A DNA stretch of 64,000 nucleotides from Marsupella aquatica. Its lineage: Eukaryota > Plantae > Marchantiophyta. The stretch covers positions 25,285,520 through 25,349,519 of the forward strand of contig OZ316893.1 of the NCBI GenBank assembly GCA_973895155.1, given 5' to 3'. The notes under the pieces were generated by a model. That model worked only from the letters and a program-made list of their open reading frames with translations. It had not been told where the DNA came from and did not search any database. Both the position numbers and the translations under genes were made by a program. Positions 9,850 through 41,111 of this stretch are shown here, one piece after another (position 1 is the stretch's first letter; each line of letters begins with the position of its first letter).

Positions 9850-10255
9850 AGACACAAGCAAGGATGGGTTGCTGACTGGAGTATGTAATTACCCAAGCTA
9901 AGCAGTGAGAACTTGACTTTGCACAATGCGAAACACTCAGGGATAACAAAAAGTGAACTGGACAATTGTGCTCTCTGGCTTCAAATGGTGATGTTTGGTA
10001 CCTGGGAGTGGGAATGGGAATTACATTGGATTCCCAAGGTGCACAGACAGGCCATTAGATTCCCAACATTCCACAAAGCCCAATGTTCACGCATCCCTAC
10101 ATTGCCTGAAAAGCCAACGTATGTCACACATGGGAGCGCTATCCTCTCTCATGAGTTGACATGACATGTCCCCTATTCTTAATTATCTGAATTGATACAA
10201 GTTGTCTTCTGTCCTTTCAGTCTCCAATGGGCCTTTCAGACCCCTAGCCACATAA

Positions 10256-11683: not shown

Positions 11684-12197
11684 ATTGAGAACTGGTCACA
11701 CATGAGAATTTCTGGCAAAGCACGAAGTGCGTGATGAGCGATGGCATTCGACACTACCACGAGCATGAGAACCAAACCCTGTGCAGAGCGCGTAGGGTCA
11801 ACTGGACTCGACGTGGCTAGTTCGAACCAGGCCGAGGGCAGTTTGAACCCTGGTTTTTAGAGGATGGCGGTCGGGAATCCCACTACCGCTGGAGATGAGA
11901 GTCCCGATGGCGGTCGGAGGAATTTTACGGTGTCAAATCGTACAAGGTAAATTTTGGGTTGGAGGTCAGCAACCTCCAAACCGTTGGAGATGCTCAGGGG
12001 TACCGTTGATGTCTATTGGGGTGAGGCTAGGTGCACTGGGTGTATCTCTTTGCCCTCACAGCCCTAGATGGCCTGCCATCCCGTGAGTTTTCAATTGCTG
12101 AAAGTGCTATCACCTCCTAGACAGGGAGGCATGAAATTCCCCTTTTGTCATGCCGAGGGACAGTGCCGCTTGTGCACATCGACATGTCCCTCGCATG

Positions 12198-12672
12198 TGT
12201 TGAGCATAGACGACGATCGCAACGGCAAGCCCATGAACCATCCAACGCACAATAGTCGACACAAGAGATACGTGGTTCACCTCCTTGAGGCTACGTCCAC
12301 GGGAACACACAAGAGAGCTTTACTGAACTCTAAGCCCGTCGGCTATACCGAGTCTCCACAGTGTAAGCTCTCCCTATCTCTCAAGTGGCTCCATAACAAT
12401 GAGCCTTGGTTCTACCTCTCCAAGCACACATGCCTCTTATGATATAGTGTGCAACTTAGTTGTACCTAACCACATAGTTGTACCTAACCACATAGTTGTA
12501 CCTAACCACATAGTTGTACCTAATCACGTAGTTGTACCTAATCACGTAGTTGTACCTAATCACGTAGTTGTACCTAACCACGTAGTTGTACCTAACCACG
12601 TAGTTGTACCAACCCACGTTGTTGTACCAACCACGTCATACCTAACCTAGACGTAAGAGTAAATACCCAACA
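12198..12672 (-). repeat. Copia 3' LTR (475 bp)
   Basis: tgttgagcatag...aatacccaaca; identical by eye to the 5' LTR except for one extra 18-bp unit. Confidence 0.95.
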
Positions 12673-12683
12673 ATCTTCCCCTT
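12673..12683 (-). promoter_or_regulatory. Copia polypurine tract
   Basis: Minus strand AAGGGGAAGAT immediately before the 3' LTR. Confidence 0.85.
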
Positions 12684-12863
12684 GACTCTGGTCTAGGGGA
12701 GAGTAATACTGCCAATGTATATGATCCCTCAGCGGGAAGTTCTGGACAGAAACCAAACCGGTTTCCCTCTCTAACTAGAGCAAACCAGAACTAAGCCGTA
12801 GCCTAATACATAGGAATGAGGAAGAGCATATATCAGTAATTACAATGAATGTTTAAGAAAACT

Positions 12864-15800
12864 CTACTTGTGATGCAATTGCAAAACCTGCAATACGTCA
12901 CGGTGTCTAGAGAAACTCTCCAAAGGAATCACTTTGGTAAATGCGTCAGCCGGGTTGAGTTTACCATCAATCTTGACTAGCTCAAACAATTTATCAGACA
13001 CAGCCTGCCTGATAAAATGGTACCTGACGTCAATGTGCTTCACTCTGCTGTCCATCACCTGGTTCACAGCAAGGTGGAGCGCACTTTGACTATCACAATG
13101 GAGCTTCACATTCCCCTGTGGCAATCCCATTTCAGTGATAAGTCTATCCAACCAAATCGCTTCCTTTGCTGCTTCCGCAGCTGCAACATACTCCGCTTCT
13201 GTAGTAGACTGAGCAATACACTTCTGCAAAGTAGACCTCCAACTTATGCATCCACCGCCAAGTGTGAACACGTATCCTGTTGTTGATCTCCTTCGGTCCA
13301 AATCTTGTCCATAGTCAGAATCTACATAGCCAATCAATGATCTAGCATTCTTTGCATTCGCATCAAATAAAAGACCATGATCCACGGTACCCTTCAAGTA
13401 CCTGATAATCCACTTCACTGCTTCCCAGTGTACCTTCCCTGGATTCGACATGTACCTGCTCACCTTGCCCATAGCCATGGCAAGATCAGGTCTAGTGCAA
13501 GTCATCAAATACATGAGACTCCCCACTGCCTTGTCATATGGAACCTTTGACATCAACCCCTTCTCTGTGTCATCCGTAGGACAGAACGCTGATGATAACT
13601 TGAAGTGTGGAGCCAACGGGGTACTTACTGGCTTGCTATTCTCCATGTTGAACCTTGCAATTACCTTCCTCGCATAACTGCTCTGCGTCAACCATAGCTT
13701 GCCAGCCTCCAAGTCCCTAGTGATCTTCATACCCAAAATCCTCTTAGCTGGCCCTAAGTCCTTCATCTTAAACTCTGCACTAAGCAGTGCCTTGAGCTTA
13801 ACAATCTCAGACCTATCCTTGGCTGCAATTAGCATGTCATCCACATAAAGTACTAAAACAATGAACCCAAAGACAACATTCTTCACCGGTTTCAAATACA
13901 CACAAGGGTCAAATACACTTCTGTGAAAACCTTGTGACCGAATCCAATCGTCAAACCGCTTGTTCCACTGTCTTGGTGACTGCTTCAACCCATACAAGGA
14001 TTTCAGCAATCTGCAAACCAATTCCTTCTGTCCTCTCTTCACAAAACCTAGCGGTTGTCTCATGAAGATCACCTCTTCCAATGTGCCATAGAGGAAAGCT
14101 GTGACAACATCCATCTGATCTAGGAGCAGACCAAACATTACAACAAGTACACACAATAGTCGTATTGTAGAGTACTTAGCAACTGGTGAGAAGACCTCAT
14201 TGTAATCCACACCTTTCTCTTGTGTGAATCCCTTTGCTACCAATCTAGCCTTGTAGACCTTCGATCCACCTCCTATGGAATTATCCTTCAGCTTGTAAAT
14301 CCACTTGCTGTCCACCACTTGCTGACCCTTAGGCAGCTTAACAAGCTCCCAAGTTTTGTTGTCCTTTAGTGACTGCATCTCCGTTTGCATTGCTGCAGTC
14401 CACTTCTGCTTCTCTTTTGAAGCACTTGCCTCATGAAATGAAGAAGGTTCTCCTTCTTCCAAAATTAACGCATCACCCTCATCATCAGCTGTAAAATCAT
14501 CCTCTTGCAGTTGAGATGAATCAACCCACTGTCCATACCTTGATGGAGCGCGTACAGTGCGACCAGATGTTCTTCTAGCCGATGACTCCGGTTGATCTGC
14601 GTGTGCTGGTACAATTTGAAGCTCAACAGCATCCACTTGTTGCTCACCAGCATCAACAAACTCCTCTGGTTCCTCTGGCACAGGAACCAGCTCCATAATT
14701 GGAGCAACTCCTTCTCTCCGGTCATGCACCTCATAACCAATCTCCCCCTCAACGAGATCCGGGATAGGAGATTTTCCTTTGTCAGTACGGGAGACCTGAG
14801 TATTCTCCCCCTCCTTCAATAATCTGGATTCATTGAAGGAAACATCCCTACTGACAACGAGCTTACAGGCAATAGGATCCCATAGCCTATAGGCTTTCAC
14901 ACCACTCTGGTACCCAAGAAAAATACATTTCCTGGAGGTAGGATCCAACTTGGTCCTATTCTGCTTTGGTGTGAGAGCATATGCATCACTTCCAAAAAAT
15001 TACCAAGCCATGATAGTCTGCTTGCCGCTTATAGCGCATCTCAAACGGCGTTTTGAAATTGATAGCACTAGAAGGAGAAAGATTTACCAAATAAGCTGCG
15101 GTATTGACAGCTTCTGCCCAAAATTCTTGTGGTAAACCTGATTGGCTCAACATACTCCGTGACCGCTCCAACAGTGTCCGATTGAGCCTCTCAGCGACAC
15201 CATTCTGCTACGGAGTATAAACTGTGGTGAGATGGCGAGTTATCCCCTGTTCTGAACAGTACTCTTCAAATTCCATTGAAGTGTACTCCCCGCCGTTGTC
15301 TGACCTCAGACTCTTCACCCTTGTATCCAAACACTTGATCGTGTTTCCAGTCTGATTCTCCACCTGGGCCTTCCACTTCTTAAAAATGGACAAGACATCA
15401 GACTTATGCGTCATGAAATAAATCCACACAAATCTTGAGTAATCATCAATAAATGATACATAGTACAACTTTCCAGAGTGTGAGGGAGTCGGGGATGGAC
15501 CCCACACGTCACTATGTATGTACTCAAGAACCGCTTTGGAACGATGAGTTCCAACACCAAAAGCACGACGATGCTGCTTTCCAAGAATGCAATGCTCACA
15601 AAACTCTAATTTACAAGATTGCAAATCAGAAATGAGTCCATTCTTCCGTAAGATAGCCAAACCCTTCTCACTCATGTGGCCTAGCCGTGAATGCCACAGT
15701 TGAGTCATCTCCTCGTGAGACTTGGTTACATTGGCCTCTCCACATACAGTATTGCCCTGTAACACATACAAATTCTTTTGTCTACTCCCCTTCAAAATCA

Positions 15801-17172
15801 CTGTCTCTCCCGACCTGACTTGAAGTTCACCATCAATAACGCTCCATTGATGACCATTTGAATCCAACACACCGAGTGAAATCAGATTCTTACGCATGCC
15901 AGGTACATACCTGACTCCGGACACTGTGCGCACAGCGCCATCAAACATTTGAATCTTCACAAACCCAATTCCCTCAATTTGACAGGAGTGATCATTTCCC
16001 ATCAGAACTGAACCGTTTGAAATAGAGTAAGAACTGAAAAACTCACGAATGTAACAAATATGAAAAGAGCAAGCACAATCAAGAATCCACACATCATCTG
16101 CTCTCCTAGATGACGTGCACAGGGCATACCCCCGGCTTCATAAAACATACTCATCATTGAGTAAATCAGCTTCTCCATCAGCCCTAGCCACATTTGCCGA
16201 TGAAGTTTCCGCTGCCTTTCCCTTACAGTCTCGCTTGAAGTGTCCAACTTGGTTGCACTTCCAACATGTCACCTGCCTCCTCTGAGGGGATTTACCCTTG
16301 GACTTAGATCTGGATTTAGATCTAAACTGGGTTCTACGGTCCCCAGTTGGTCGCTGCATACTCCTCCCACGGTTAACATTGACGGCAGCACCAGATGATG
16401 AAGGCTGTGACGTGATGTGCATCTTCTGCTGAAGATCATCACTAAGCAGAGAACTTACCACGTCATTGTATGAAATGGTATCCCTATCACGATGCAACAA
16501 CACTCGTGATAGGGACTGGTAAGATGGAGGCAATGAACTAAGAAGCTGCAGAGCCTTCGTCTCATCATTCAAAGTCTCCCCAAGGTTTTCCAAGTCAACG
16601 ACCATGTCGTTGAAAGCATCCACATGGTCTTGCAACTTCGTACCAGATTCCTTCATCCTGAAACTCATCAGTTTGTAGGAAGTGTAGAGCCGGTTCGACA
16701 ACTCCTTGCGGTGATACTTGCTCTGCAATTCCGCAAACAAGGACATGCAATCCTTATGTGCACCTAACTGCTTGATGATGGGAGGCATGAGATAGAGTGT
16801 AACACACCACACTCCCTGCTCCTGCATGCGGTCCCATTGTTTCTCATCAACATCGTCTTCACGAGGGCTCAGCAGTTGGCCCATCCCTGACGCATAAAGC
16901 ACTCCCTTCACCTGCTTCTCCCATAGCAAGTAGTCAGAGCGCCCATCATACTTTGTCACTTCATACTTGGGTCCCCCAAGCTTGAAAGTCCCCATCTTCT
17001 TCTTTACCGTGAGCTCCGGTAGTAGTACTGCTTCCTCCACCACACGCCGCACCGGTGATGGTATCGGTGTCACGTGCTCTTCCTCCTGCTCCTCTCTCTG
17101 CCCCTGAAACCTCCGCGGTGATCCTCGTGCTTCAAGTTCCACGTCTTCAAAAAACTCCTCCGAATCACTCAT
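12864..17172 (-). pseudogene. Copia gag-pol, disrupted
   Basis: Gag with CWKCNQVGHFKRDC knuckle; PR WILDCACSFH; GAG-pre-integrase WHSRLGH; INT HSDVWGP and LRSDNGGEY; RT YVDDML; RH GYVDSD. In-frame TGA at 16138-16140, TAG at 15208-15210 (in TP[Q]QNGVAER) and a +1 frameshift in a homopolymer near 14995. Confidence 0.93.
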
Positions 17173-18312
17173 ATGAGAAAGTCACAAAAAATGTTGTTTT
17201 TCACAACTTCTCAAAAAACTCGAAACTCAACATCGCCGCGTAGCCCACAAAGCTAGGAGTCCAATACTGAAAACCAAAATCAAAATCGAAATTTGACGGA
17301 AAAGTTATTCAAATTTCGGTCGAGGTGGGTAAAACCTTGGGAAACTCCCCCGTTTTGACCACCTCAGGGAATAACCGAAATACCAAGTACAACCCGTTGT
17401 CGGAATTGCGATGTGATTGGTGCGCTGCATTGCCAACTTCAATGGCTACGACCTCGCCGAAAAATAACCAAAAAAGTTATCGTTCGGCGGATGAAATCTT
17501 TGTCGGACGATCAAAAAATAGCTCTCTGGTTTTTTGGAATATTCTATGACCCTTGTACAGGCCCTGTGGGAATTTTGGAAGAACAATCGAGGGGCTGACA
17601 TGTGTCCTCGAACCCCCAAAACCCCCTACCACCCTTCGTCGTCGAAATCTGGTCGCGCGCGCAGAAAATACACACGGCAGAATGTACCCCTCGACACCAA
17701 ACGCAAGATATCTCACTCGGGTTTTGACGAAATCAAGATCCGATTTCAGATTTGGAAACTAGACTCCGAGGCGATGAAGATCGATATAAGAAGCACCCAA
17801 AACGAGGAAAGAACGAGAGAGAAAAAAATTGGTAAAGATGACAGATTTCTCTCAATTGCCATAGCCAATTTCGAATCATTTTTTCAAAGAGAAAAAAATG
17901 GTACCTTGTCAACAACGAATGTTGATCAATTGCACTTGGTGTCGTCACCAAGTCCAACAAGGTAATTGATTTTGCTTAGCCTTCCTCTTTGCATCAAAGA
18001 GCCAATCCCGAACTCAAAAACAATCGTCTTGCCTCAATCTCTCCGTTGAGTCAAAACACTTGATGCTTCTCCCTCCGAGTCGATTGCCAACTTTCTTCAC
18101 AAAATCCAGAACGACGAAAACTTAGATCTCTCTGCACCACGAGCTCCGTTCAACGATTTCTTCACACCGTTAGAAAGCTCTTGCCCTGATCTATCCGTTG
18201 AGCCCATAAACTCCAAGTTCCATGCGATGGAACTCTGGAAAATCCACCAACACTCAACGCTGGAAAAACCGTCATGAAATCCCGTCACGAACACACGTCA
18301 CCTCCCAAGCAT

Positions 18313-18324
18313 GCTCTGATACCA
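18313..18324 (-). promoter_or_regulatory. Copia primer-binding site (initiator tRNA-Met)
   Basis: Minus strand TGGTATCAGAGC, 2 nt inside the 5' LTR boundary. Confidence 0.93.
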
Positions 18325-18326
18325 AT

Positions 18327-18783
18327 TGTTGAGCATAGACGACGATCGCAACGGCAAGCCCATGAACCATCCAACGCACAATAGTCGACACAAGAGATAC
18401 GTGGTTCACCTCCTTGAGGCTACGTCCACGGGAACACACAAGAGAGCTTTACTGAACTCTAAGCCCGTCGGCTATACCGAGTCTCCACAGTGTAAGCTCT
18501 CCCTATCTCTCAAGTGGCTCCATAACAATGAGCCTTGGTTCTACCTCTCCAAGCACACATGCCTCTTATGATATAGTGTGCAACTTAGTTGTACCTAACC
18601 ACATAGTTGTACCTAACCACATAGTTGTACCTAATCACGTAGTTGTACCTAATCACGTAGTTGTACCTAATCACGTAGTTGTACCTAACCACGTAGTTGT
18701 ACCTAACCACGTAGTTGTACCAACCCACGTTGTTGTACCAACCACGTCATACCTAACCTAGACGTAAGAGTAAATACCCAACA
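18327..18783 (-). repeat. Copia 5' LTR (457 bp)
   Basis: Direct repeat of 12198-12672. Confidence 0.95.
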
Positions 18784-19094
18784 GCATGCCCGCTAGGTAT
18801 GGTTAGGGCTAGTGTACTACTTGAGTTAGTGTCATGTTCTTGTAGCGAGTCTGGGTTGTTCTTGAAGCAAAAGGGGTTTGTTAGTGTGACGCCTGGACCC
18901 GGTCCTACTTAGGGCATGTTTTTCTTTGCCGTTCTTCAGTTCTTCTTGAATCGTTGTGAGACAGAGTTTTTCAGAGCTGCTCGTCGGTTCCGTACACGGA
19001 ATTCACACAGTGATTCGTTAGATGCTCCCGGCCGATCTTGGCATCTCGCCGGTTTTCGATTTGATTTCAATACGTTTGTTCTATCACGCCTTTT

Positions 19095-19109
19095 ATTCAA
19101 GAAGAACTG
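19095..19109 (+). promoter_or_regulatory. Putative self-priming PBS of the Gypsy-type element
   Basis: attcaagaagaactg directly at the end of repeat A1 is the exact reverse complement of cagttcttcttgaat (18937-18951) inside A1; no TGG-type tRNA PBS. Confidence 0.7.
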
Positions 19110-20766
19110 CCGCCGGGTTAGCGGTGAAGGGAAGAAGATCAACGTTGTGCTTCTTAGCTGCTATGTCGGTCCAGATTTCCATCAAAGCCGGTGCAATTTC
19201 TTTGAGCAACAATGGAGGCACGGGTTGAAATTATGGGTTCAATATGGTGTTAAGTGTATACTTAACATAAGTATACACATAACGCTCCTATTGGAGCCCG
19301 ATTTTTCCTTTCCGGTTGCATCCAAGGACCCTTTGCTGCTTCCGACTATGGCTGCCGGCTGCTGACTGCCACGACCTTTTTCGGGCCATTTTCGGTGTTT
19401 TCCGGTCGCAGCGCAACCACCTTCCCTTCGCTTTACGTTTTCACGACCCTTTGGGGTCCCGTTCTTTCTTTTTCCCTCATCGGCCGTTGTTTTATTTCGC
19501 CTCCCCTCGCAGCTCCCGTCGCGAGGTGCCTCCCGGTCCTGCCTGTGTATACACATGCGGGGCTCATCATTGCCCCTGGGTCGCGCATAGGGCCGCGCGC
19601 GCCCTCCCTTCGGCATTTTTCTTCCTCCCTCGCCCATTCCTTCATTTGTTTCCTGCCGTTGCCAACATCCTCGGCAGCATTAAAGCAGGGGAGGGAAGTC
19701 CCATTCGAACTCCCTCACTCGGGAGTAGATTTTCACCCCAGGCCAAGGCAGGAGCGCAAGGAGGGGGCCCAAAGCCCTATGCAGCATTAAGAGGGGGGCG
19801 AGTACATTCAGGCATTAAAGCAGGAGAGGAGGGAGAGCGAGTGTGCCAGAAGAGGGCACAAGACCCTATGGAGAATGAAGGAGGAGGAGGAGTTGAAGCG
19901 AAAGCAGGGCACGAGGCCCTAGGCAGCTCTGAAGCATTCAAGGGGAGGGGGAGTTGAAGCGAAAGCAGGGCACGGAGCCCACTGTCAGCATTAAAGGAGG
20001 AGGGAGAGCGCAAGGAGAGGGCATGAGGCCCATTTTTCATTTACAAGAGGGGGAGAGGGGGAGTACATTTGACTCCCTCCTCTAGGGAGTCACAGTACTG
20101 CCAGGCACGAGGCCCTAGGCAGCATTAGAGGAGGGGGAGGGTGCGCAAAGCCCTATGCAGGGTTTGAGCACTTAAAGGCCCGTTTTCTTTTTCCTCGCCT
20201 TGCCTTGGGTCTCGTCTTTCCTTCTGTTTCATTTGTCGCTCGTCCGCTGCGCGACGATTGAAGAGTCTTCGACTCACATGAGGGCATGTACATAGGGCAC
20301 CGCGGCCGGTCCCCACTACGACCATTTTGCTGACGACGCGTGCCCGGTCTTTTTTCCGTCTTGCTTGCTGCCAGTCCCCGGGTCCACATCGGGCCCGATG
20401 TATACACTTAACCGGGCCCCATGTTTATACATTTGAAAAGGCCGATGTATACACTTAAGGGGGGCCCAGGTTAACGTTTTTAAGGGCCCATTTTTCTGGA
20501 TTTCTTTGCTGCCGCCACGTGTCATCTGCATAAAGCTGAGGGCCCGGCATATTCATCAGACGGTCAATCCAGCAAGCACAACACCGGTACAATTGGAGTT
20601 TTTAAGGGTCTTTTCTTTGCCGACGGTTTTTCTGTGTGTTTACACATTCGACACATTTCTGCCTCGCACCGTTGTTTCCTTTATGGGTTTCATTTCCTAG
20701 CCTTGGGTTGCCACTCCCTTTTCTTGTCAGTTTCTTTCCCATTGGCACCCCAGTTGAGCATGCAGC

Positions 20767-22398
20767 ATGTCAGCAGAGGGGCCGAGTCGTAGCAGCTCAT
20801 CGCCACCGACACCCAGGTACCACTTGCGGAGTGATCCACGACCGTTGGTGCCAATTTCATTGGAGTCTCGACAATTTCGCCGGCGTCAGCAGACAGCAGC
20901 AGCACCCACACCACGCAACCCTTCTGCTACATTTGGCTGTCGCTTCACCACTACCCTGAAGCCTGCTATTACATCTTTGCCCTTTACTCCTTCTGCATCC
21001 GTGGTTGTTCATGCTTCACCGACATACAGCATGGACGCCAACCACTCATCTGGCCGCATTGAACGCTTCAGCGGGCGGCCAGGCACTGTTTCTTTGCGTG
21101 AGTTCAAATCCACTTTCTACACTGTCGTTTACGAATTGGAGTTGAAGTATGGCAACAATTTCACAAATGCTTTTGCATTTAAGCAGCTAGCCAGGTATGT
21201 GCACCACGAGGCTTTGGATGTGTATGAGCAGCATTCTCAACGGTTGCTTGATGTCACACAATTGCCTAACCCTACCTATGCCACTGCAATTGCGGCTGCC
21301 TCACAACTGGCATTACAGAATGCCATTGCAGCCCATGCTGCTGCTCCTGCCACTTCCCCTCCTACTCCAGTTCCCACCACTGCACCAGTTACTCCCACTG
21401 TCTTGGCACAGGCTACATCAGGCATTTCTCCCACCATTGATTCCCCTGCCTTTGCTGATCTAGTGGCTGAGTTTTTCCAGGTTCTTGAATTGGAATTCCC
21501 AATCAAGAGTGCTGACAAAATCATGCAGTTGGCCACCTTTGTGAGGCAGCGCGATGAAACATTGAAGATGCTACATCGCCGGCTTCTCAAGCTGAAGGAA
21601 GACACCCAGAGCATCACCGACCTGGAAGCTGCTCATCGTTATCTTCGCGCATTGGAGGGCACACCAGCTCTCCATTCGCAAGTGTTGCAGCAAGTATTCT
21701 CAGAGTTTGGAGACAGCTACACCTTGCTCAATGTCTATGACACTGCTGAGAAACTTGAGTTGGCCCATGCACATTATGAGGCCAGTATTGCGCGTCCACC
21801 GCGATCCAGGTACCAGGCTGCTGCCCCTACACTGGCCACTCCTTCCCGTGTGCCACAGTATGGTTCCAAGACCAAGCCAGCACATGCTGCTTTCATGCTG
21901 CCATCTTGCAACTACTGTGGTCACCCTAATCACAAGGCTAATGAATGTGATATTGTTGCTAAGGATCTGTCTTGTGATTTTTGGAGGAAAGTGGGCCACT
22001 TGGAGGCAGTTTGTTTTGCCAAATTCCCCGAGAGGAAGCAGCTACGACAGCAGGCCACTCATCCTGCTCCTATTTCCACTCCCCCACCAGCTAGGAGGGC
22101 TCCTATTGCATCAGTTGCTCCTCCTTCCAGTGGCAAAGCACCCGGTGCTAACCAATTGCCCAAGCAGCAACAGAAGCAACCAGCTCAGAAGGAGGCTCAC
22201 AACGCACAGGCAACTCATGAGGTTGAGTCATTACGTGCCCAACTTGCCAACATCAAAGGCAAGTCCACTGCCTCTGCTGGTCCTTCTCAACCGGCTGGTC
22301 ATGTGCAACCCATCCCTGGCCCAGGCACCACTGACAGTTCAGCACCTCCACCCCGCTCTTTCTATGGCTTGCCATTTGATGCTCATATGGGTGAGTGA
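20767..22398 (+). CDS. Gag-like protein of the Gypsy-type element
   Basis: 543-aa ORF; IERFSG capsid-like start, RQRDETL motif, tandem knuckles CNYCGHPNHKANEC and CDF(W)RKVGHLEAVC. Confidence 0.8.
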   Translation: MSAEGPSRSSSSPPTPRYHLRSDPRPLVPISLESRQFRRRQQTAAAPTPRNPSATFGCRFTTTLKPAITSLPFTPSASVVVHASPTYSMDANHSSGRIERFSGRPGTVSLREFKSTFYTVVYELELKYGNNFTNAFAFKQLARYVHHEALDVYEQHSQRLLDVTQLPNPTYATAIAAASQLALQNAIAAHAAAPATSPPTPVPTTAPVTPTVLAQATSGISPTIDSPAFADLVAEFFQVLELEFPIKSADKIMQLATFVRQRDETLKMLHRRLLKLKEDTQSITDLEAAHRYLRALEGTPALHSQVLQQVFSEFGDSYTLLNVYDTAEKLELAHAHYEASIARPPRSRYQAAAPTLATPSRVPQYGSKTKPAHAAFMLPSCNYCGHPNHKANECDIVAKDLSCDFWRKVGHLEAVCFAKFPERKQLRQQATHPAPISTPPPARRAPIASVAPPSSGKAPGANQLPKQQQKQPAQKEAHNAQATHEVESLRAQLANIKGKSTASAGPSQPAGHVQPIPGPGTTDSSAPPPRSFYGLPFDAHMGE

Positions 22399-23253
22399 GT
22401 GCTGTCCTCTGCTCCACAGCCTGGCCTTACAGCAGACTTTTCAGATTCATTCTGCCCTTCTTATTTTGCTTACCAGCAGGCCAGTGTTGCCTCCCGTATT
22501 GCTCCCACACGCCGCATTGTACAGGCTGATGGTCTTGCTGCCGGTCCTATGACTAGAGCCAAGGGCGCTCGGGCTATCATGCCCCAATCTTTTCAGCCAC
22601 TCACACTTGCTGAAGAGCGCACCTTGTTGGCGAGGGGGGAGGGAGCTGCAGCTACATCCATTCCACCACCAGGTGCTGCTGACATTTCACAGGGAGTTGT
22701 TTCTCCTGAGCTGCTTGAGCATTTCACCTCCGGTATGGCACAAAGGATTCTTACAACTCCACTTTTCAGTTGCCAGGATTTACAGCTGGATGCTAGAGCT
22801 GTCATCAAAGCGCTAGAGGGCTCACTGCATTCTTCATCAGCCCCTGTGACACCGGTTTTGGAGGTCCAATCTCATGTACATACTGGACCTTCTTCTTCTC
22901 CACTGCATGCTTCCACTGGTTTGGCTATCCCAGTACCGATTTCCAGTGGTAGAGATGACAGTATTGTTGCAAATTGTGTGACCAGAGCTACACTTGATTC
23001 TGGTCATGCTGCTCCATCTTTCCTAGCTATGCTGTTGAGTGGGAAGACCATGGACACTAACTCCCTTCACAAGGTACCTCATCATTTGCCAAAAGTGGTG
23101 CCTAGTGACAGGACTTTAGTTTCCACCACCATTGCCATTGTTGACAACAGGAATTCAGCAGTCAAGTTGGAGGGTCACACTCCTCAAGTGGTCATGCTAG
23201 ACACAGGCGCTCAACTAGTGATCTTGGGCACGCCAAGAAGATGGGACTGCTGA
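22399..23253 (+). pseudogene. Pol N-terminal region including the aspartic protease active site; frameshifted relative to the rest of pol
   Basis: In frame with gag after a single TGA; VMLDTGA at ~23191-23211; shifts into the AKKMGL frame near 23230. Confidence 0.75.
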
Positions 23254-26200
23254 CTGATCATTTACAACAATCCAGGTGGCACATTCGGACTGCTAGTGGC
23301 ACTGTGGAGGATGTGCTGGGTGAGAGTTCTACTTTACTCACTCTCACTTTTAATGGAGGTACAGATCAGGAACTGCATTTCCCAGTCAGATGTTTAGTTA
23401 CCAATGCCACTACGTATGATGTGCTCATTGGCCAGGAGGCTTTGTTCCCACCAGGTTTTACCATTAACAACTGGCATGAGCATGCATACTACAGAGTTGA
23501 TTGGCATACGGATGGCTCACACTTGGGCTACATTCCACTTGATTTGCATGGTGCCCATACCCCTATGGCTCACCACTGTGTGTTGAAAGCAGTGCACACA
23601 GCTACCTATGTCAACCACCCATTGCAGGATTGGATTGAGGAGGATGATGATGAGGTGGCTATTGCACATGCTGCTGCACGTATAGCAGCACTTTCCAGCA
23701 ACGTGGATCATCAACCAGAGGTGGTACAACGGCTCCAAGCAGCCCATGGACCTTTGGTGGCTGCATTGCACAAATTTGAGGACCTTGGGCAGCATAATGG
23801 ACAACCAATAGCCCCAATCTTGAGCGCACCAGTTACATGGACTCCTCCTTCAGATGGCCTTACATTGCTTGAGCTTTTTGGTGGCATTTCTACAGGCCTG
23901 GAAGCTCTCCTAAAGTCTGGCATGGTGGTGAAGCAGTACATCTATGTGGATATTGATCCAGGTGCAAGGCAAGTGGCTGAATCCCATATGCTGGAATTTT
24001 CAGAGCGATTTCCCCAGCAGTTTCCACATAGTGCATGGAAGTCTGCATTTTCTTTCTTCCCTCCAGATATCCAGCTTGTCCAGCACCGGCACTTAACCCT
24101 TCTTGGCTCCCTTGATTTGATCATAGCTGGTTGGGAATGCCAAGGGTTTTCAGCTGCTGGTCACGGTGCTGGACTGCATGATTCTCGTTCTGGCCTTTTC
24201 ACAACATTGGTTCAGATTCTCACCTGGGCTCAATCCCTTTATCCTGCTGTTGGTTATATCCTTGAGAATACTCCATCTCAGTTTGACCAGCGTCCACAGG
24301 TCAAAGAGGATTTCAGTGTGGTCCAGCACTACTTGGGACCACCCCTTCTCATTGATGCAGTGCACTGTGGTTCTTATGCACATCGTCTTTGTAACTTTTG
24401 GACTAACCTTGCACCACCTTCCTTGTTGGAGATGGCTCTTCACCACACATCCAGGGACACTAACCTTATAGTGGACCAGATTTTGGATCCTGACAGTTCT
24501 TGCCAACCAGTTACACGGCAAGAGCCAGCACCTTGGTATCCAGCCAATACCATTGGACAACCCCGTGCTGCTTGGCCTACATTTGTGTCCTTTCCAGGTG
24601 CACATGCTTTTCAGGGTGATGGTCCTGGTCTGGTTTATCGACATTCTACCGGTACATGGGATGAACCTAGTCCTGAGGAGAGAGAACGGGCTATGGGCTT
24701 CCAACCCGGTACTACAGGTCACACCAAAATCACCAGGCTGGCCAGGAATGCTTTACTTGGCAGGGTAATGGATCTCAATGCTCTCACTTGGCTTCTGGTC
24801 ACTTGCATCCTTTTTCAGATGTACATTCCTCCAGCATTAGGAGCTCCAGCCTTACCTCTCCACAGTGCTGCCGCATGGCATCCAGACCAGGTGCACTTAC
24901 CTCTGTCCAACACTCACCACTTCAGTCCAAGTGTTGGGGGGGAGGAGGTCCCTTGTAATGCGGCTGACATTATTTCTGAGTTTCATGGTGTGGACCACTT
25001 TAGATCAGCAGGTACAACAGGCCTTGGAGAGGCCTCATCACCTTATCAGCAACATGCTAGCAGCTTGGACAGTGGAGAGGCTGGCACTTCTGGCTCTTCT
25101 GGCTCTTCAAGCACGAGTACATCAGGTCCTATTCCTAGTGTTGCCAACTACACATTTATCATGGGCAACCACCTGAGTAAAAGACAGAAGGACCAGCTGC
25201 TGAATTCGCTCCTCAAGCATGAGAATGTGTTTGCTTTCTCTATGAAGGACTTGGGTAAGTGCAAGACTATGCAGTTCTCCATTGAGTTGGCTGATGAAAC
25301 ACCTATCTTTAGGCGGAGACACCGTTTGAGTAAGCTTGAGTGGCAGCTGGTGGATGAGAGGTGCCAAGAGCTTTATGAAGTTGGTCTTATTCAGCCATCT
25401 ACATCAGATTTTGCGGCAGCTACAGTGATGCCAGCAAAGAAGGATTCCAGTGGATTGTGGACAGAGAAGCGCATGTGTGGGGACTACAGGCCATTGAACC
25501 TGGTCACACCCCAGGACAGGTACCCCATGCCGCGGCCAGAGGAGCTATTTGACAGCATTGGAGACTCAGACATCTTCACTCTTGTGGATCTAAGGCAAGG
25601 CTTCAACCAGATTTTGCTGCTTGCAAAGGATCGCAAGAAAACAGCTTTCCATGGTAGTAACCAACTATGGGAGTGGTTGGTGATGCCATTTGGCTTGAAG
25701 AATGCGCCCATATTCTTTCAAAGAGTCATGGACCAGGTTCTGCAAGGTGCTGAGTTTCTGAAATGTTACATTGATGATGTGTTGGTCCACAGCAAAGGAT
25801 TTGACCAGCATCTACTTGACCTTGAGGAGCTATTCATGAGGCTTAAGAAGGTGAACCTAAAGATACACCCCAAGAAGTGTGAATTTGCTGTCAGATCAGT
25901 AGTATATCTTGGGCATCGCATTCTTCCAAATGGAACCATGGCTCACTGGGCCAAGGTGGTATCCATCTTGGAAATGCCCACTCCTACCGATGTTCACACT
26001 TTGAGGAGTTTTATTGGGTTGTGCAATTACTACCGGATCTACATCAAAGATTTCAGTACCATTGCACACCCATTGTATGCTTTGTTGAAAAAGAATGTGA
26101 CTTGGACATGGAGTACAGATGTTGAGGCAGCATTTGCCACTTTGAAGGAGAAGCTCTCAGAATACCCGGTGCTGAGAAGACCTGATTTCAGCAAGGTCTT

Positions 26201-28139
26201 TGTGTTACACACAGATTGGAGTGCCCTTGGGATTGGTGCCATTATGGGCCAGCATGATGAGGAAGGTAAAGAGTACGTCATTGCCTATGCATCCAGGAGC
26301 AACAATCAGGCAGAGAGTCATTATTCTTCTTATGAGGGTGAATGCCTTGCTGTTGTGTGGGCTGTCATACATTACAGGCCCTACCTCTATGGGACCAGGT
26401 TTGTTCTCTACACCGACCACCAGCCCTTGAAGTGGTTGATGACCAACGACAAGCTTACTGGCAAGCTTGCTCGTTGGGCGCTCATACTCCAGGAGTATGA
26501 TTTTGAGGTAATTCATAGGCCTGGTGTGACACATCAAAATGCTGACACTATGTCCCGCAGCCCTTTGATTGCCTCTGATGATCCCTCAGATGCACGGCAG
26601 GATTTTGACCAGGTTTCCATCCTGCCTACATTTCATGCATCTACCTATCTTGCTTTGCTGCCATGCTACATTGTTGACCAACCTGTGGTGGACATATGGG
26701 AGGACAGCGACACTCTGAGATTTCTGCAGGATGGGGAGTACCCCACCCATGTTACTGCTGCCCAGAGAGACCAAATTCAGCAAAGGTCCAAGCGCTACTT
26801 GTGGAAGGGAGATCATCTTGTGCGCTGCTTGCCAGACAGGGAAGTGGTGGTTCCACCCATTCATGAGAGGGTTGGCCTTATCCGTAAGGTACATTCTGAG
26901 CTTGGTCATTTTGGTGTTAAGAGGACTTATAGCCTCTTGGTCCCCCATTATCATTGGAGAGGCATGCATGGCCAGGTTCGAGATGTTATTGCCCGGTGTG
27001 AGCAGTGTGATAGGGTAAGGACTTCTTTCACATCTTGGCAACCCACACTTCATCCACTCCCTATTCAGGGCATGTTTTATCGCTGGTCATGTGATTTGGC
27101 TGGAGAATTACCCCTCACGTCTCGGGGTAATCTCTACATCATGATCATGATAGAGCATTTCTCCAAGTGGATAGAACTTGTGGCATTGCCGGATAAGACC
27201 TCCCGTAGCACCAGCCAGGCATTCCTACAACAAGTTCTTAGCCGCTTTGGAGCTTGTGCAGAATGTCTCACTGACCAGGGATCAGAGTTTAGAGGAGAGT
27301 TCCAGGAGCTGCTTGATCAGGCCCTCATTGATCATCGCCGAACGTCACGAGATCACCCACAAGCAGATGGCTTGGCAAAGCGCATGGTTCAGACATGCAA
27401 GAAGGGTCTCTGGAAGATCTGCCTCACCAAAAATAAGGAGGATTGGGACCTGGCCTTACCCTACATTGCCATGGGGTATAGGATGTCCAGACATGCATCA
27501 CTGTCTAACTTTTCTCCCTACTTCTTGTTGTTTGGTCGTCACCCAGTTCCACCTTCTGCTATTGCTGCTCACATGCTTCAGGTGGTGGACTTGGATTCAG
27601 CTGTGACTTGGTCTGATGTGATCTCTGAGAGGGCTGCCCTATTCAGGAGGGTTATGCCCATGGCCATGGAGAATTTGGCCATTGCACAGCATAGGGACAC
27701 ACTGCGTTATGCACACACACGAGGGGGCACCTTTCAGCCCAAGGTCAGGAAGTTTGATGTAGGAGATTTTGTGTACTTGCAGCGGCAAGCTAACGACACC
27801 CTGGACACCTCTACCAGTCGTACTATTCTCAGGGTTAAAGCTATTCGACCGTCTGGAGTGCTAGAGTTACAAGGGGCAGATGGGCGCACAATTGTTGACA
27901 ATGCCAAGATTTGTGCCCCTTGTCATCTGCCTAACCTGGATCCCACCATTGTGACTTCTACCTGGATTCCACCTGTGGACTACCCTTGCAAAGTGTGTTT
28001 GCGAATTGATGATGCTGACCAGATGCTGCTGTGTGATAATTGCAATGGAGGGTACCATCTTTTCTGCCTTCGGCCTGAACTTACCCAGGTGCCAGAAGGG
28101 TTATGGTTTTGCCCTTCCTGTGCTCCACGTGCTACCTGA
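23241..28139 (+). CDS. Pol polyprotein: PR C-half, C5 cytosine methyltransferase, RT, RNase H, integrase, PHD finger
   Basis: YDVLIG (PR); LELFGG, IAGWECQGFS, YILENT, AHRLCNFWTN, ERERAMGF, LLGR (DNMT, ~23859-24790); MPFGLKNAP and YIDD (RT); LHTDWS, YTDHQPL, NADTMSR (RH); HSELGH...CEQC, SCDLAG, LTDQGSEF (INT); C4HC3 at 27987-28121. Confidence 0.93.
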   Translation: MGLLTDHLQQSRWHIRTASGTVEDVLGESSTLLTLTFNGGTDQELHFPVRCLVTNATTYDVLIGQEALFPPGFTINNWHEHAYYRVDWHTDGSHLGYIPLDLHGAHTPMAHHCVLKAVHTATYVNHPLQDWIEEDDDEVAIAHAAARIAALSSNVDHQPEVVQRLQAAHGPLVAALHKFEDLGQHNGQPIAPILSAPVTWTPPSDGLTLLELFGGISTGLEALLKSGMVVKQYIYVDIDPGARQVAESHMLEFSERFPQQFPHSAWKSAFSFFPPDIQLVQHRHLTLLGSLDLIIAGWECQGFSAAGHGAGLHDSRSGLFTTLVQILTWAQSLYPAVGYILENTPSQFDQRPQVKEDFSVVQHYLGPPLLIDAVHCGSYAHRLCNFWTNLAPPSLLEMALHHTSRDTNLIVDQILDPDSSCQPVTRQEPAPWYPANTIGQPRAAWPTFVSFPGAHAFQGDGPGLVYRHSTGTWDEPSPEERERAMGFQPGTTGHTKITRLARNALLGRVMDLNALTWLLVTCILFQMYIPPALGAPALPLHSAAAWHPDQVHLPLSNTHHFSPSVGGEEVPCNAADIISEFHGVDHFRSAGTTGLGEASSPYQQHASSLDSGEAGTSGSSGSSSTSTSGPIPSVANYTFIMGNHLSKRQKDQLLNSLLKHENVFAFSMKDLGKCKTMQFSIELADETPIFRRRHRLSKLEWQLVDERCQELYEVGLIQPSTSDFAAATVMPAKKDSSGLWTEKRMCGDYRPLNLVTPQDRYPMPRPEELFDSIGDSDIFTLVDLRQGFNQILLLAKDRKKTAFHGSNQLWEWLVMPFGLKNAPIFFQRVMDQVLQGAEFLKCYIDDVLVHSKGFDQHLLDLEELFMRLKKVNLKIHPKKCEFAVRSVVYLGHRILPNGTMAHWAKVVSILEMPTPTDVHTLRSFIGLCNYYRIYIKDFSTIAHPLYALLKKNVTWTWSTDVEAAFATLKEKLSEYPVLRRPDFSKVFVLHTDWSALGIGAIMGQHDEEGKEYVIAYASRSNNQAESHYSSYEGECLAVVWAVIHYRPYLYGTRFVLYTDHQPLKWLMTNDKLTGKLARWALILQEYDFEVIHRPGVTHQNADTMSRSPLIASDDPSDARQDFDQVSILPTFHASTYLALLPCYIVDQPVVDIWEDSDTLRFLQDGEYPTHVTAAQRDQIQQRSKRYLWKGDHLVRCLPDREVVVPPIHERVGLIRKVHSELGHFGVKRTYSLLVPHYHWRGMHGQVRDVIARCEQCDRVRTSFTSWQPTLHPLPIQGMFYRWSCDLAGELPLTSRGNLYIMIMIEHFSKWIELVALPDKTSRSTSQAFLQQVLSRFGACAECLTDQGSEFRGEFQELLDQALIDHRRTSRDHPQADGLAKRMVQTCKKGLWKICLTKNKEDWDLALPYIAMGYRMSRHASLSNFSPYFLLFGRHPVPPSAIAAHMLQVVDLDSAVTWSDVISERAALFRRVMPMAMENLAIAQHRDTLRYAHTRGGTFQPKVRKFDVGDFVYLQRQANDTLDTSTSRTILRVKAIRPSGVLELQGADGRTIVDNAKICAPCHLPNLDPTIVTSTWIPPVDYPCKVCLRIDDADQMLLCDNCNGGYHLFCLRPELTQVPEGLWFCPSCAPRAT

Positions 28140-28171
28140 CTTTTCTTCAGCCCTCCTTTTAGCTGTGGTCT

Positions 28172-28178
28172 GGGGGGG
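28172..28178 (+). promoter_or_regulatory. Putative polypurine tract (G7) of the Gypsy-type element
   Basis: G7 run about 30 nt after the pol stop, abutting the start of repeat B1. Confidence 0.6.
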
Positions 28179-28373
28179 ATACAGAGGTTTACACCTCCAC
28201 TACGAACATACCACCTCAGTTGCTTTTTCTTGGCACTTGTGAATGTGATTGGACTTTTTCTATGCATGTTGGTTGCTAGCAGCTTGCACATATGCATAGC
28301 TTGCACATATGCATTGCTGGTGACTTGTATGTTTTCGATACACTATATGGCTACGATACTATATGTCACGACA
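28179..28373 (+). repeat. Repeat B1 (195 bp, with an internal 17-bp duplication)
   Basis: atacagaggtttacacc...tatatgtcacgaca; matches 28737-28914. Confidence 0.92.
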
Positions 28374-28375
28374 GC

Positions 28376-28736
28376 TGTCATGCCGAGGGACAGTGCCGCT
28401 TGTGCACATCGACATGTCCCTCGCATGCCCGCTAGGTATGGTTAGGGCTAGTGTACTACTTGAGTTAGTGTCATGTTCTTGTAGCGAGTCTGGGCTGTTC
28501 TTGAAGCAAAAGGGGTTTGTTAGTGTGACGCCTGGACCCGGTCCTACTTAGGGCATGTTTTTCTTTGCCGTTCTTCAGTTCTTCTTGAATTGCTGTGAGA
28601 CAGAGTTTTTCAGAGCTGCTCGTCGGTTCCGTACACGGAATTCACACAGTGATTCGTTAGATGCTCCCGGCCGATCTTGGCATCTCGTCGGTTTTCGATT
28701 CGATTTCAGTACGTTTGTTTCTATCACGCCTTTTAT
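28376..28736 (+). repeat. Repeat A2 (361 bp)
   Basis: tgtcatgccgaggg...ctatcacgccttttat; matches A1. Confidence 0.92.
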
Positions 28737-28914
28737 ATACAGAGGTTTACACCTCCACTACGAACAAACCACCTCAGTTGCTTTTTCTTGGCACTTGTGA
28801 ATGTGATTGGACTTTTTCTATGCATGTTGGTTGCTAGCAGCTTGCACATATGCATTGCTGGTGACTTGTATGTTTTCGATACACTATATGGCTACGATAC
28901 TATATGTCACGACA
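28737..28914 (+). repeat. Terminal repeat B2 (178 bp)
   Basis: Second copy of B, ending ...cacgaca and followed by the TSD cttt. Confidence 0.92.
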
Positions 28915-29054
28915 CTTTCCTATATCAGTGGCCATGACAAATGATTCATAAAAAAGTCAGCAATCAACATGTCTCAAAGCTGCCTTATCAAGGAGACTAC
29001 CAACGCCAATGCTACTTCTCTATATATGTACACTAGCTCAATACCCATGCGTTG

Positions 29055-30240
29055 CACAAAAGAAGTCGTGTCGGCCAAGATGTCGTTGAGAAAAAAAAGG
29101 TGTTGTGTTGGCATGAGGTCGTTGAGAGAAAAGATGCCTTGTCGGCCAAGAGGTCGTGGAGAGAAAAGGTGTCGTGTCGGCCAAGAGGTTGTTGAGACAA
29201 AAGAAGTCATTGAGAAAAAAAAGATGTCGTGTTGGCCAAGAGGTCATTGAGAAAAAAGATGTTTGTCGGCCAAGAAGTAGTTGAAAAAAAGTTGTCATGT
29301 CAACAAAGATGTCGTTGAAAAAAAAGTTGTCATGTCGGCCAAGATGTCATTGAGAAAAAGATGTCGTGTCCGCAAAGACATCATTGAGGGAAAAGATGTC
29401 GTGTCGGCCAAGACATCGTTGAGGGAAAATACCCGTGCATTGCACAAAAGATGTCGTTAATAAAAAAGATGTTGTGTCGCCCAAAATGTCATTAAAATAA
29501 AGATGTCGTGGTGCCGAAGATATTGTTAAGAAAACAGATGTCGTGGCGCCCAAGATGTCGTGTCCCCCAAGATGTCGCTAAGAGAAAAGTGTTGTGGCAC
29601 CCAAATGCTGTTAAGAGAAAATATGTTGTGTTTCTTAAGAATGATGTTCTTATGTGAAAGATGTCATGAAGTAAAAAGACGTTGTTAAGAAAAAGAAGTC
29701 ATTTTGCCAAAGATGACATGTTGCCCAAAAGGTCATCAAGTAAAAAATTGTTGTCAAGTAAATAGATGTCATGTCGCCAATGATGTTGTTATGCCAAAGA
29801 TGTTGTTAAGTATTAAGATGTTGTTAAGTACAAAATGGTCAATAGATAAAGTATGTCATTACTCAAAGATGTTGTGAAGTAAAAGATGTTGTTAAATACG
29901 TCTCGGGCCTGATACCTGTGCATTGCACAAATGATGCATGTTGAGGTGAGATAATAAGTCGATGACAGAAAAACATTTCGAGCTGAGAAAAATATGTCAA
30001 GGAGAGAAAGGATGGCAAGGTGAGAAAAAAATGTCATATTAGAGAAAAACATTCTGAGGTGAGAAAAAGATGTCAAGGAGAGAAAAGATGGCAAGATGAG
30101 AAAAAGATGTCAAGATGATGAAAAAATGTTGAGAGCGAAGAAAGATGTTGTGGTGAGATAAGATGGCCAGGTGAGAAAAATATGGCAAAGTGAGACAAAT
30201 ATAATATATGCATGTTGAGGTGAGCAAAGATCTCGAGGTG
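29055..30240. repeat. Degenerate low-complexity tandem array (AAGATGTCGT-based, grading into GAGAAAAAGATGTCAAG units)
   Basis: Many copies of aagatgtcgtgtcggcc and aagatgtc(a/g)ttgagaaaa, decaying rightwards. Confidence 0.8.
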
Positions 30241-35360: not shown

Positions 35361-37234
35361 CTCAATAAGGTGTTAGTTTGCTCAATAGGGTGTTAGTTTT
35401 CAAGGCTCCTTTGTATATTTTTTTGGGTCTTTGTTCCTTCATTGGCTTTTGGTATAGGACCCTTTGGCTTGTTTTTCTTGGGGCTCTTTCTCCTCTTTTT
35501 CTCCCCTTCATTGTGTTGCTTTGCCCTTGGGATCTTGTCTCCAATTCCAAAAAAATTGCCCTTGGGCACTCTCATATATATTTGGCTATCATTCTTTGTT
35601 TATTAAATGGTACTTTTATTAAAGTAAAACGATTCGGATATCTTCCCGGGTACACTTATGAGGGGTAAACATCCAGAAATATAACTTTTGACTCTGAGAA
35701 CATACACTGCGACCTCTTATTCAGACCCGCACGATATTTCTGATCGACGGCCAGAAATCATGCCACGTGTTAATCTGGGTCGATACTCAAGTGTTTCGGG
35801 GCTTCATGTTCGTGACATCTCTGAAGGTTTCACGTTGCTGTGAAATCAATGGTGGAGCTCTCGCGCTGGCAATTTGGAATTGGATTCTGCAGCACGAAAG
35901 CCGAATCCATGCCGGAGGGCGATTTGCAATTGGGGTCTGCACGAAACCTGAATTGCTGCTACTGCTGTAGATTCGGGCATATAAAAAAAGGAGAGAGATG
36001 ATGAAGAGAATTCAGAGATTGACGCATCGATAGAATCATTTCGCAGTGCAGTGCTGCAGCGGTTCTGAGCTTCGATTGCGGTACACAGCTCGTGACTCGT
36101 GAGTTTCTCCACCGCTCGCTCTTCTCCTGTGTCAATGCTGGCTTTTCGCTCCGTCCAATCGTCAGCACCTGCAAGTTTTTTTTGTACTGTTGGGTGCGAA
36201 TTACGGCCTTCCGCCCTTTCGCTTGTTGCGGATGTCTGTTTTGCCATTCGTACTGTCGTTGACTGGTTTTGGGGTTACCGTAACATCACTGCTTTCGTGT
36301 TTTGTCTGCGGGAATTGATTTCGGGAATGCTGAGAGACAACTTTCTGTATCTTTGGTCCGATTTCGGGAATGCTGAGAGACAACTTTCTCTATCTTTGGT
36401 CTTTGGGTTCTGCTTTATCAGTAGCTCGAATGACCTTCCGTCCTTCCCGGCGCTCCGCTTTGAGTTACTAATAAAGTCTCTCAAGAGAATCGGTCCACTG
36501 GAGTCTGGAGAGCTTCGTTGCATGCTAACTGTCGTCACTTGCCGATCTGAATGCGTCATATTGCACGGTGCCCCGGTCATGAGTCGAGAATTCAGAAAAA
36601 TGAGAAAAAAAATTACACTGGAGAGAGCTCGATCCGATCTGTCGAGGCTTGTTAGGATAGAATTGTGCAAGAGTTCGTGGGCCAGGCCAGTTCTGCGAAT
36701 GATGTGATGCTGATGATTATGATGACGGTGATACCGGTACCGCTGAATAATACAATTTGGGCTCAACAAGTGAAAATCATACACATTGGGAAGAGTTTGT
36801 TGGAGATGGAAAGGTCGAGCGGAGCCTGCAGGTGTGCTCCTTCCTTCCTGCTAGGGAGGGCCCACCCAATCTTCTCTCGGGACTCGCTTGGTATTGGTGC
36901 CAGACTGTAATCAGTCTTGCTGTTGCTTTCAGTCCTCTCCTCTCCTGTCCTCTCCTCTCCTCTCCTCTCCTCCTGTGATTGTGCCGTCAGCATTTTGTCT
37001 GTAGAGGGTTGTACTTGACTTTCGTGTGTCCGCCTTTCCTCACTTGTAGGAGCTCCTTCTGTCGCTCGCTAGCCTACCTGCGAGGCTGTTCGGAGTTCCA
37101 ATCGACACTGGCGTTCGTCTTCACTCCTCGCTTTCCTTTGATACCTCATTCTTTTGACATTCTCTTCTTCATCCAGTTTTCTAGGGCAGAATACCGGAGG
37201 AGGAGGTTGCCGTGCTGATTTGAGCGCAGCAGCA

Positions 37235-40200: not shown

Positions 40201-41111
40201 GACTAGGTTAAATTGGTGTACTTGGTCCCTAATTCACGGTATAATAGATTAAATTTCTGGATGACTGAAAATGAACTTTTATAAGCCTTGAGCACTGTAA
40301 AGCTCTGAAGATCCCCTGTCGAGGAGAGCATTTTCTCTTCTGTGTCGTTTGTGATCTGACTCTTGCCTCTGTCGTGCGATCAAGAGTATTGATTGCCTCG
40401 TCGAATACTATTCTGATCGAGTGTTACGGCCATGTTGAGCAGGTCTTGGCAGAATTGGCACCATACGTCACTTTAGCCGAGAGGCTTGGTAAGCTGGCAG
40501 TGCAGCTGGTTGGAGGTGGTGGTGGTGTAAGAGATGTGAAAGTGACATACACCTCTGCCCGCGCGGATGACGAACTGGACACGCGTCTACTCCGAGCTAT
40601 GATCACCAAAGGGCTGATTGAACCTGTATCCAGCGCCTTCATCAATCTCGTTAATGCGGATTACGTTTCTAAGCAAAGAGGATTGCGGATCAGTGAGGAA
40701 AGATGCCCCTCTGAAGGCCCTGTTGAGATCCCACTCGAAAGCATCGAGGTGAAGATCTCTAATGTGAATTCCAAGTTTGCCACAGCTACCTCGGGTGGTG
40801 ATATTACCCTCGAGGGGAACGTGAAGGCTGGAGTCCCCTACCTCACAAAAGTAGGCAGTTTCGATGTTGACATCAGTCTGGAGGGAAGTATCATCCTGTG
40901 CAGGCAAGTTGATCAACCTGGCATGATTGGGAAAGTTGGCAACTTGCTCGGGGAGGAGAATGTCAACATCAGCTTCATGAGCGTAGGCCGAGATTCACCT
41001 CGCAAGCTGGCTATCATGGCCATAGGTGTTGATGATGAACCAACCAAAGACGTTCTTGAGAAGATTGGAGCCATTCCAGCCATTGAAGAATTTGTGTTTC
41101 TCAAGCTGTAA
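37235..41111 (+). CDS. PGDH: D-3-phosphoglycerate dehydrogenase, plastid-targeted; exons 37235-37856, 38915-39291, 39504-39614, 39757-39852, 40443-41111 (624 aa)
   Basis: Ser/Ala-rich transit peptide; [31 protein letters not shown]; C-terminal ACT domain DQPGMIG; exon phases join without stops. Confidence 0.96.

Follow-up and report, generated by a model that had tools for sequence, protein, structure and literature searches.

A conserved, uncut att-like site inside a Ty3/gypsy element of Marsupella aquatica and a candidate route of integration through an end-joined circle

Results

Structure of the element and its surroundings

The window, by which we mean the whole 64-kb stretch of Marsupella aquatica DNA analysed here, contains a Ty3/gypsy element at 12146-28914 whose segments follow the order A1-internal-B1-GC-A2-B2, and which encodes DNMT-like, RT, RNase H, integrase and PHD domains (Table 1). 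A1 and A2 are ~98% identical, the first part of A1 matching 28376-28427 at 52 of 52 positions; B2 departs from B1 at one base and lacks its 17-bp duplication. The Ty1/copia element nested in A1 has LTRs that are identical over at least 300 bp and that contain an 18-bp tandem array. A degenerate 17/34-bp satellite (29040-30190) lies immediately to the right of the gypsy element. Elsewhere in the window are convergent ORFs with NAM-associated and Plant_tran/DDE_Tnp_4 matches (7970-11695), a pair as in PIF/Harbinger transposons, as well as host genes that show the host to be a plant, namely phosphoglycerate dehydrogenase-like exons and a QLQ+WRC gene (37142-41111 and 52859-53874), the latter of which we take to be of the growth-regulating-factor type.

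Table 1. Coordinates of the element and its parts, numbered from the first letter of the window.
Feature	Position	Strand	Remarks
Left target-site duplication, CTTT	12142..12145	+	Matches 28915-28918
A1, first part	12146..12197	+	Starts TGTCATG, the left terminus and right half of the att-like site
Nested Ty1/copia element interrupting A1	12198..18783	-	Own 5-bp duplication, GCATG
A1, second part	18789..19096	+	~98% identical to A2; 3' end is the predicted right cDNA end
5' arm of self-priming helix, predicted transcript start	18937..18951	+	15-bp helix with 19095-19109
Primer-binding site, Tf1-type self-priming (predicted)	19097..19109	+	Immediately 3' of A1
gag-like region	20758..23253	+	CCHC-like and protease-like motifs, read by eye
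pol ORF, 1664 aa	23145..28139	+	C5-methyltransferase-like, RT, RNase H, integrase, PHD finger
G7 tract, predicted polypurine tract	28172..28178	+	Directly 5' of B1
B1, 195 bp	28179..28373	+	Ends CACGACA; 17-bp duplication absent from B2
Internal, uncut att-like site CACGACA-GC-TGTCATG	28367..28382	.	Between B1 and A2
A2, 361 bp	28376..28736	+	Follows GC spacer
A2/B2 join, TTTTAT/ATACAG	28731..28742	.	Inferred end-to-end cDNA junction
B2, 178 bp	28737..28914	+	Ends CACGACA, the right terminus
Right target-site duplication, CTTT	28915..28918	+	4-bp duplication with left copy

Pfam searches placed the gypsy-type domains of Pol in the Ty3/gypsy order RT-RNase H-integrase, and the best PDB match of Pol was Ty3 Gag-Pol (7q5b, E=4e-88). 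A match to PF00145 (cytosine methyltransferase) in Pol was above the Pfam cut-off. No tyrosine recombinase was matched by Pfam in the 5 ORFs of the element, in which rve was present, and no chromodomain was matched at the integrase C-terminus, where a PHD finger was found instead. The gag-like region, for which the Pfam search gave no match, is not continuous in the window copy, where a stop and a frame change break it. At its third catalytic position the integrase of this copy lacks the acidic residue that 64 of the 80 related loci described below have there. With gag-pol interrupted and a catalytic residue lost, the window copy is probably dead.

The methyltransferase-like domain occupies 23850-24830, corresponding to Pol residues of about 236-560. 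It lies 5' of RT in the window as well as in P0004, P0012, P0014 and P0032, and between RNase H and integrase in many relatives; the motif reads GWECQ in the window compared to GWPCQ in many relatives. Many relatives in P0003-P0035 (1,150-1,380 aa), including Marchantia hypothetical proteins, have the methyltransferase domain without RT, while in L081 it closes the gag-like ORF and is followed by a stop and then the RT ORF. An additional 794-aa ORF with no Pfam match is present between pol and the G-tract in L077 (11450-13831).

Among the matches listed, the integrase-PHD region has relatives in volvocine algae (Tetrabaena, Pleodorina and Volvox) and in Haematococcus, and the methyltransferase region has Marchantia proteins among its relatives. 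No Klebsormidium-labelled protein was among them (39 of 39 methyltransferase matches; best 120 of 267 integrase-PHD matches). In viral contigs the integrase alignment found nothing, and methyltransferase matches were weak (E 7e-11 or worse, 30 loci). The protein family is thus widespread, and the repeat layout was checked in the window and in the metagenome loci named here.

The internal site and its conservation

The site between B1 and A2 consists of CACGACA (28367-28373), a GC spacer (28374-28375) and TGTCATG (28376-28382). At its center is the perfect palindrome GACAGCTGTC, which is exactly 10 bp long and occurs once in the window. Both the sequence and its palindrome are as an earlier note on this DNA had reported. 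That note had also claimed that the same half-sites form the outer ends of the element without the GC, and indeed TGTCATG starts at 12146 and CACGACA ends at 28914. Since 10-bp palindromes as such are common (68 in the window), the site stands out because of its place and its conservation rather than the palindrome alone.

Conservation was assessed using an integrase-PHD alignment search, from which we took 80 metagenome loci (the best 80 of 364 confirmed). Eleven of these lacked a usable B segment and were excluded. The remaining 69 comprised 40 with a B1/A2 junction (29 distinct), 27 with a single B (21 distinct), and L039 and L080 with neither; loci that shared flanks or were nearly identical were merged by eye as duplicates, and all counts refer to short-read metagenome contigs, in which repeats can be mis-assembled. 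In this sister family the spacer was 2 nt long in 28 of the 29 distinct insertions. Its letters were GC in 10, GT in 9, AC in 7, AT in 1 and TA in 1 (L079), the remaining spacer being 3 nt long (L060). Because 17 of the 19 non-GC spacers represent G>A and/or C>T changes, and because L007/L038 and L025/L034 share flanks yet have GC in one member and AC in the other, we read the letter variation as decay after insertion. The GT, AC and AT spacers would be changes within CAG/CTG, as expected from methylation decay. The spacer constancy on which the earlier interpretation depended therefore holds for length, while the letters vary (19 of 29 are not GC).

Target duplications of 4 bp flanked the 9 full sister elements (8 perfect, 1 with 3 of 4 positions), none had one of 5 bp, and L013 lacked a target duplication. 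In all 4 runs with contigs of the window's own family, which come from 2 studies, loose ends clustered behind 28373 and before 28376; in X2 and X5 the end of A ran on into the primer site. The listing of changes at 3% or more, which covered 40 of the 53 substitutions and 12 of the 13 indels, contained none at the spacer.

The palindrome extends well beyond these two families. GACAGCTGTC was found downstream of pol, after the G-tract, in all 3 distant loci that reach that far (L076, L077 and L081), with the L075 contig, which stops at the ORF, falling outside this count. Integrase identity is 46% for L076 and L077, and the rest of the repeat looks unrelated in all three despite the kept 10-mer. 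In the L076 and L081 contigs the unit is permuted, running pol, B, GC, A, gag. The two ends of L081 are identical over 127 bp, which most likely reflects a collapsed repeat assembly; this contig comes from a cyanobacterial genome record, in which it is probably a eukaryotic contaminant.

These results favor the proposal of the earlier note that an uncut copy of the att site is kept inside the element: integrated copies end in its two halves, integration removes the spacer and makes 4-bp duplications, and both the spacer length and the 10-mer are conserved among relatives.

Single-B ends made up 21 of the 50 distinct 3' ends. All 6 single-B loci with a visible 5' end were of the form A-internal-B, and 5 of them (L046, L052, L056, L058 and L066) had 4-bp duplications (3 perfect, 2 with 3 of 4 positions). 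Single-B copies fit any of the models discussed below, because B1xB2 recombination and assembly collapse would each produce such copies.

Predicted priming sites and cDNA ends

In the standard LTR replication scheme, the primer site and the polypurine tract set the ends of the LTR and of the cDNA. Candidates for both are present in the element, the former after the 5' repeat and the latter before the 3' repeat. The G7 tract adjoins the start of B1, not that of A2, and a G-rich tract likewise adjoined B1 in 22 of the 22 sister-family loci printed. The 13 bases immediately after A1 are complementary to a stretch within A, and both the minimum free energy and centroid structures contained the resulting 15-bp helix; the whole 189-nt fold was not unusually stable (z -1.3), and we relied on the terminal helix alone. 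In the sister family the self-priming pair is TCTAGAAAAACT with AGTTTTTCTAGA (as in L010), which carries two compensating differences compared to the window. The pairing is kept with different letters in four families (window, sister family, L076 and L081), the pairs of L076 (12 bp) and L081 (13 bp) each being matched by 0 of 100 shuffles. In L077 the 5' repeat was not identifiable, and no clear pair could be assigned. Of 19 sister-family A1 copies, 18 have a TATA motif ~30 nt upstream of the self-priming arm; where the promoter is predicted, the window copy reads TACTTA, and L076 has no clear TATA.

The priming sites are 195 and 361 bp away from the att-like site. Given boundaries between the polypurine tract and B on one side and between A and the primer site on the other, the scheme predicts an LTR of the form B-GC-A and a cDNA that starts with ATACA and ends with TTTTAT. 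The att-like site would thus lie within the predicted LTR, and the A2/B2 join would represent the right cDNA end joined to the left. AT...AT ends predicted in this way are consistent with the expectation of the earlier note that cDNA ends do not map at TG/CA.

The A2/B2 join is variable

Among 25 distinct sister-family insertions, the A2/B2 join was length-exact (blunt) in 11, had lost the shared AT in 7, and displayed 1-nt changes or larger deletions in 7. Exactness thus differed sharply between the two junctions (28 of 29 for B1/A2 vs 11 of 25 for A2/B2; Fisher p=2.4e-5). Based on the background estimated from B1/B2 pairs (0.0018 indels per base per copy), about 1% of joins were expected to be altered, compared to the 14 of 25 observed. 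Join types were not clustered on the tree (14 changes vs a shuffled mean of 11.8), which was built from 25 integrase fragments and is nearly star-like, with 2 of 22 inner branches well supported. In the window's family, two X1 contigs join a shortened A to the exact start of B. Taken together, this variability is what imprecise joining of cDNA ends would be expected to leave.

Discussion

Relationship to known elements

TG...CA termini and a 4-bp target duplication fall within the 4-6 bp range of Ty3/gypsy elements. However, the element does not possess two whole terminal direct LTRs with att at the cDNA ends; it ends instead in A and B halves, with split direct repeats (A-B-A-B) like those that define PAT and Ngaro elements. 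PAT, TOC, Kangaroo and Ngaro elements integrate via a circle. As far as described in the available part of PMC4157794, they have the A1-B1-A2-B2 layout in common with the window element but use a tyrosine recombinase, in contrast to its DDE integrase, TG...CA ends and 4-bp duplications.

A DIRS-like repeat layout in a Gypsy element has already been noted once, at least for the alga Klebsormidium nitens: the Fig 4c legend of PMC5890265 describes KnitGypsy-Dnmt3 as having Gypsy domains together with DIRS-like repeats. As in the window element, Pol of KnitGypsy-Dnmt3 includes a cytosine methyltransferase, and judged by this description the two likely belong to the same clade. The available text of PMC5890265 is silent on termini, spacer, target duplication, priming sites and mechanism. 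Among the matches of our search of openly accessible full-text papers, we found no account of the internal site, the priming sites, the scar or a mechanism. Gypsy-7a_cRei of Chlamydomonas, likewise a Gypsy element with a PHD finger, has LTR subparts and a left LTR in which the final 8 bp of the right one are missing (PMC9940879, Fig 6 legend); from this description, that its layout is the same, B being very short, is only a lead. Troyka was rejected as a relative based on its CG ends, 3-bp duplications and restriction to animals in the available part of PMC12440569.

The self-priming arrangement is known from Tf1 and Tj1 (PMC4600332). According to the parts of PMC4600332 and PMC6317226 available, Tf1, Tj1 and Tcn1 resemble the window element in that the primer site is complementary to the predicted RNA 5' end, but possess two whole LTRs with att at the cDNA ends. 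Unlike these elements, the window element has a PHD finger and no chromodomain match.

Retroviral 2-LTR circles were long held to be dead ends, although the available portions of PMC4372172 and PMC1180852 present some evidence for their reopening by integrase, which may occur for HIV-1 (PMC4372172). Foamy virus integrase cuts the LTR-LTR palindrome after CA on both strands, giving 2-nt 5' overhangs (PMC1180852), and the geometry of CA-GC-TG matches such a cut (PMC1180852). In foamy virus and HIV-1 (PMC1180852, PMC4372172; see also PMC1905944), the palindrome arises when att-bearing cDNA ends meet, and reopening is a side or reserve route. In the window element, by contrast, the site is permanently inside the LTR, the predicted cDNA ends carry no att, and the route looks obligatory.

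A circle-first route of integration

We consider it very probable that the site is an att site that is cut internally, a premise common to the first three of the five models weighed here, and the integrase itself would be the enzyme that cleaves it. As to how the cut is used, we favor, with moderate confidence, a model in which the cDNA ends are joined first and integrase then opens the upstream internal site. The RNA is predicted to start inside A1 and to prime itself at the site after A1. Plus-strand synthesis from the G-tract before B1 would then yield a linear cDNA of the form B-GC-A-internal-B-GC-A, whose AT...AT ends are predicted to carry no att. Imprecise joining of these ends would produce a 2-LTR circle and leave the A2/B2 join as a scar. 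Integrase would nick after CA on both strands of the upstream CA-GC-TG, generating 2-nt 5' overhangs, and insert both ends, while the downstream att copy would stay uncut in the element as the template for the next round. End-joining of B-GC-A-internal-B-GC-A followed by a cut at the upstream CA-GC-TG yields exactly the integrated form observed, A-internal-B-GC-A-B, with half-site ends, no outer GC and 4-bp duplications. The suggestion of the earlier note that the cut opens a circle survives in refined form: the circle would be end-joined 2-LTR cDNA whose true junction is A2/B2, and the upstream att copy alone is seen opened.

This model requires an additional assumption. A symmetric 2-LTR circle predicts an equal yield of the mirror product, A-B-GC-A-internal-B, yet none of the 20 distinct 5' ends that are visible had this form, compared to 9 full elements with the observed one (binomial p=0.004), so that an extra bias toward the upstream copy must be assumed. 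Selection for such a bias is plausible, because the predicted R region is present at both RNA ends in the observed form alone. Timing, loading from the polypurine tract end, or a methyl mark are guesses as to its source.

Alternative models

Integrated copies do not reveal the order of cutting and joining, and the same site and product would result without a circle if integrase cut the upstream site in linear cDNA and inserted both cut ends, leaving host repair to join the free outer ends and thereby heal the chromosome. This model, which we regard as unlikely but worth serious attention, accounts for all of the features described, including the variable A2/B2 scar, and the asymmetry of a linear molecule could help to explain the use of one copy; it too, however, offers no specific reason for choosing the upstream one. 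It also leaves a chromosome break with each insertion, and the 21 distinct single-B ends would fit opened 1-LTR circles, though B1xB2 recombination explains these as well.

Template jumps with microhomology or an untemplated base give blunt, minus-2 and plus-1 joins. The same classes would be expected at A2/B2 if RT itself made the join by jumping from the right end to the left via the shared AT, with integrase then cutting the first att it reached, a scheme that could build in the asymmetry. Nevertheless, the larger deletions affecting both sides in L026, L054 and L005 look like resection and repair, and L041 retains only the last bases of B, making this model improbable in our estimation.

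The A-B-A-B layout shared with PAT and Ngaro elements (PMC4157794; PMC5890265, Fig 4c legend) might instead reflect a cycle of their type, in which the RNA covers the whole unit, both joins are templated, and B1/A2 is a circle junction remade in each round. A templated join is argued against by the variability of A2/B2: it is this join, and not B1/A2, that varies, and its state is not inherited along the tree. The missing tyrosine recombinase match, the 4-bp duplications, and the placement of the polypurine tract at the start of B and of the primer site at the end of A also conflict with such a cycle, which we judge highly improbable. Lastly, that an ordinary A-B LTR came to lie beside an element end by chance or tandem insertion, the palindrome being the usual TG...CA terminal repeat, draws on the abundance of 10-bp palindromes and on the fact that TGTC...GACA ends form one automatically, but is refuted by conservation of the layout and 2-nt spacer in 28 of 29 independent insertions of the sister family and in three distant families, where tandem insertion would have left a variable 4-bp spacer.

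Implications

The genomic record points to an entire family that depends on an internal cut: every complete copy still contains the substrate, and a scar in the integrated copies records each cDNA join. It thereby becomes possible to test whether integration is circle-first, whether a DDE integrase cleaves internally and how one of two identical sites is chosen, and the proposed route explains a layout that was noted without explanation in 2018. Structure-based LTR finders, like the one used in PMC6317226, would likely miss these copies because their terminal LTRs are not paired, and counts of the family in algae and seed-free plants may therefore be too low. A bolder reading, on which we remain evenly divided, is that a Ty3/gypsy lineage of green plants, from algae to land plants, has shifted its att site to the middle of the LTR and integrates only via an end-joined circle that its DDE integrase opens in the manner of a restriction enzyme, with a built-in means, such as replication timing or a mark set by its own methyltransferase, of cutting the upstream copy and sparing the downstream one. 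If true, 2-LTR circles would be an obligatory precursor of integration in a natural system.
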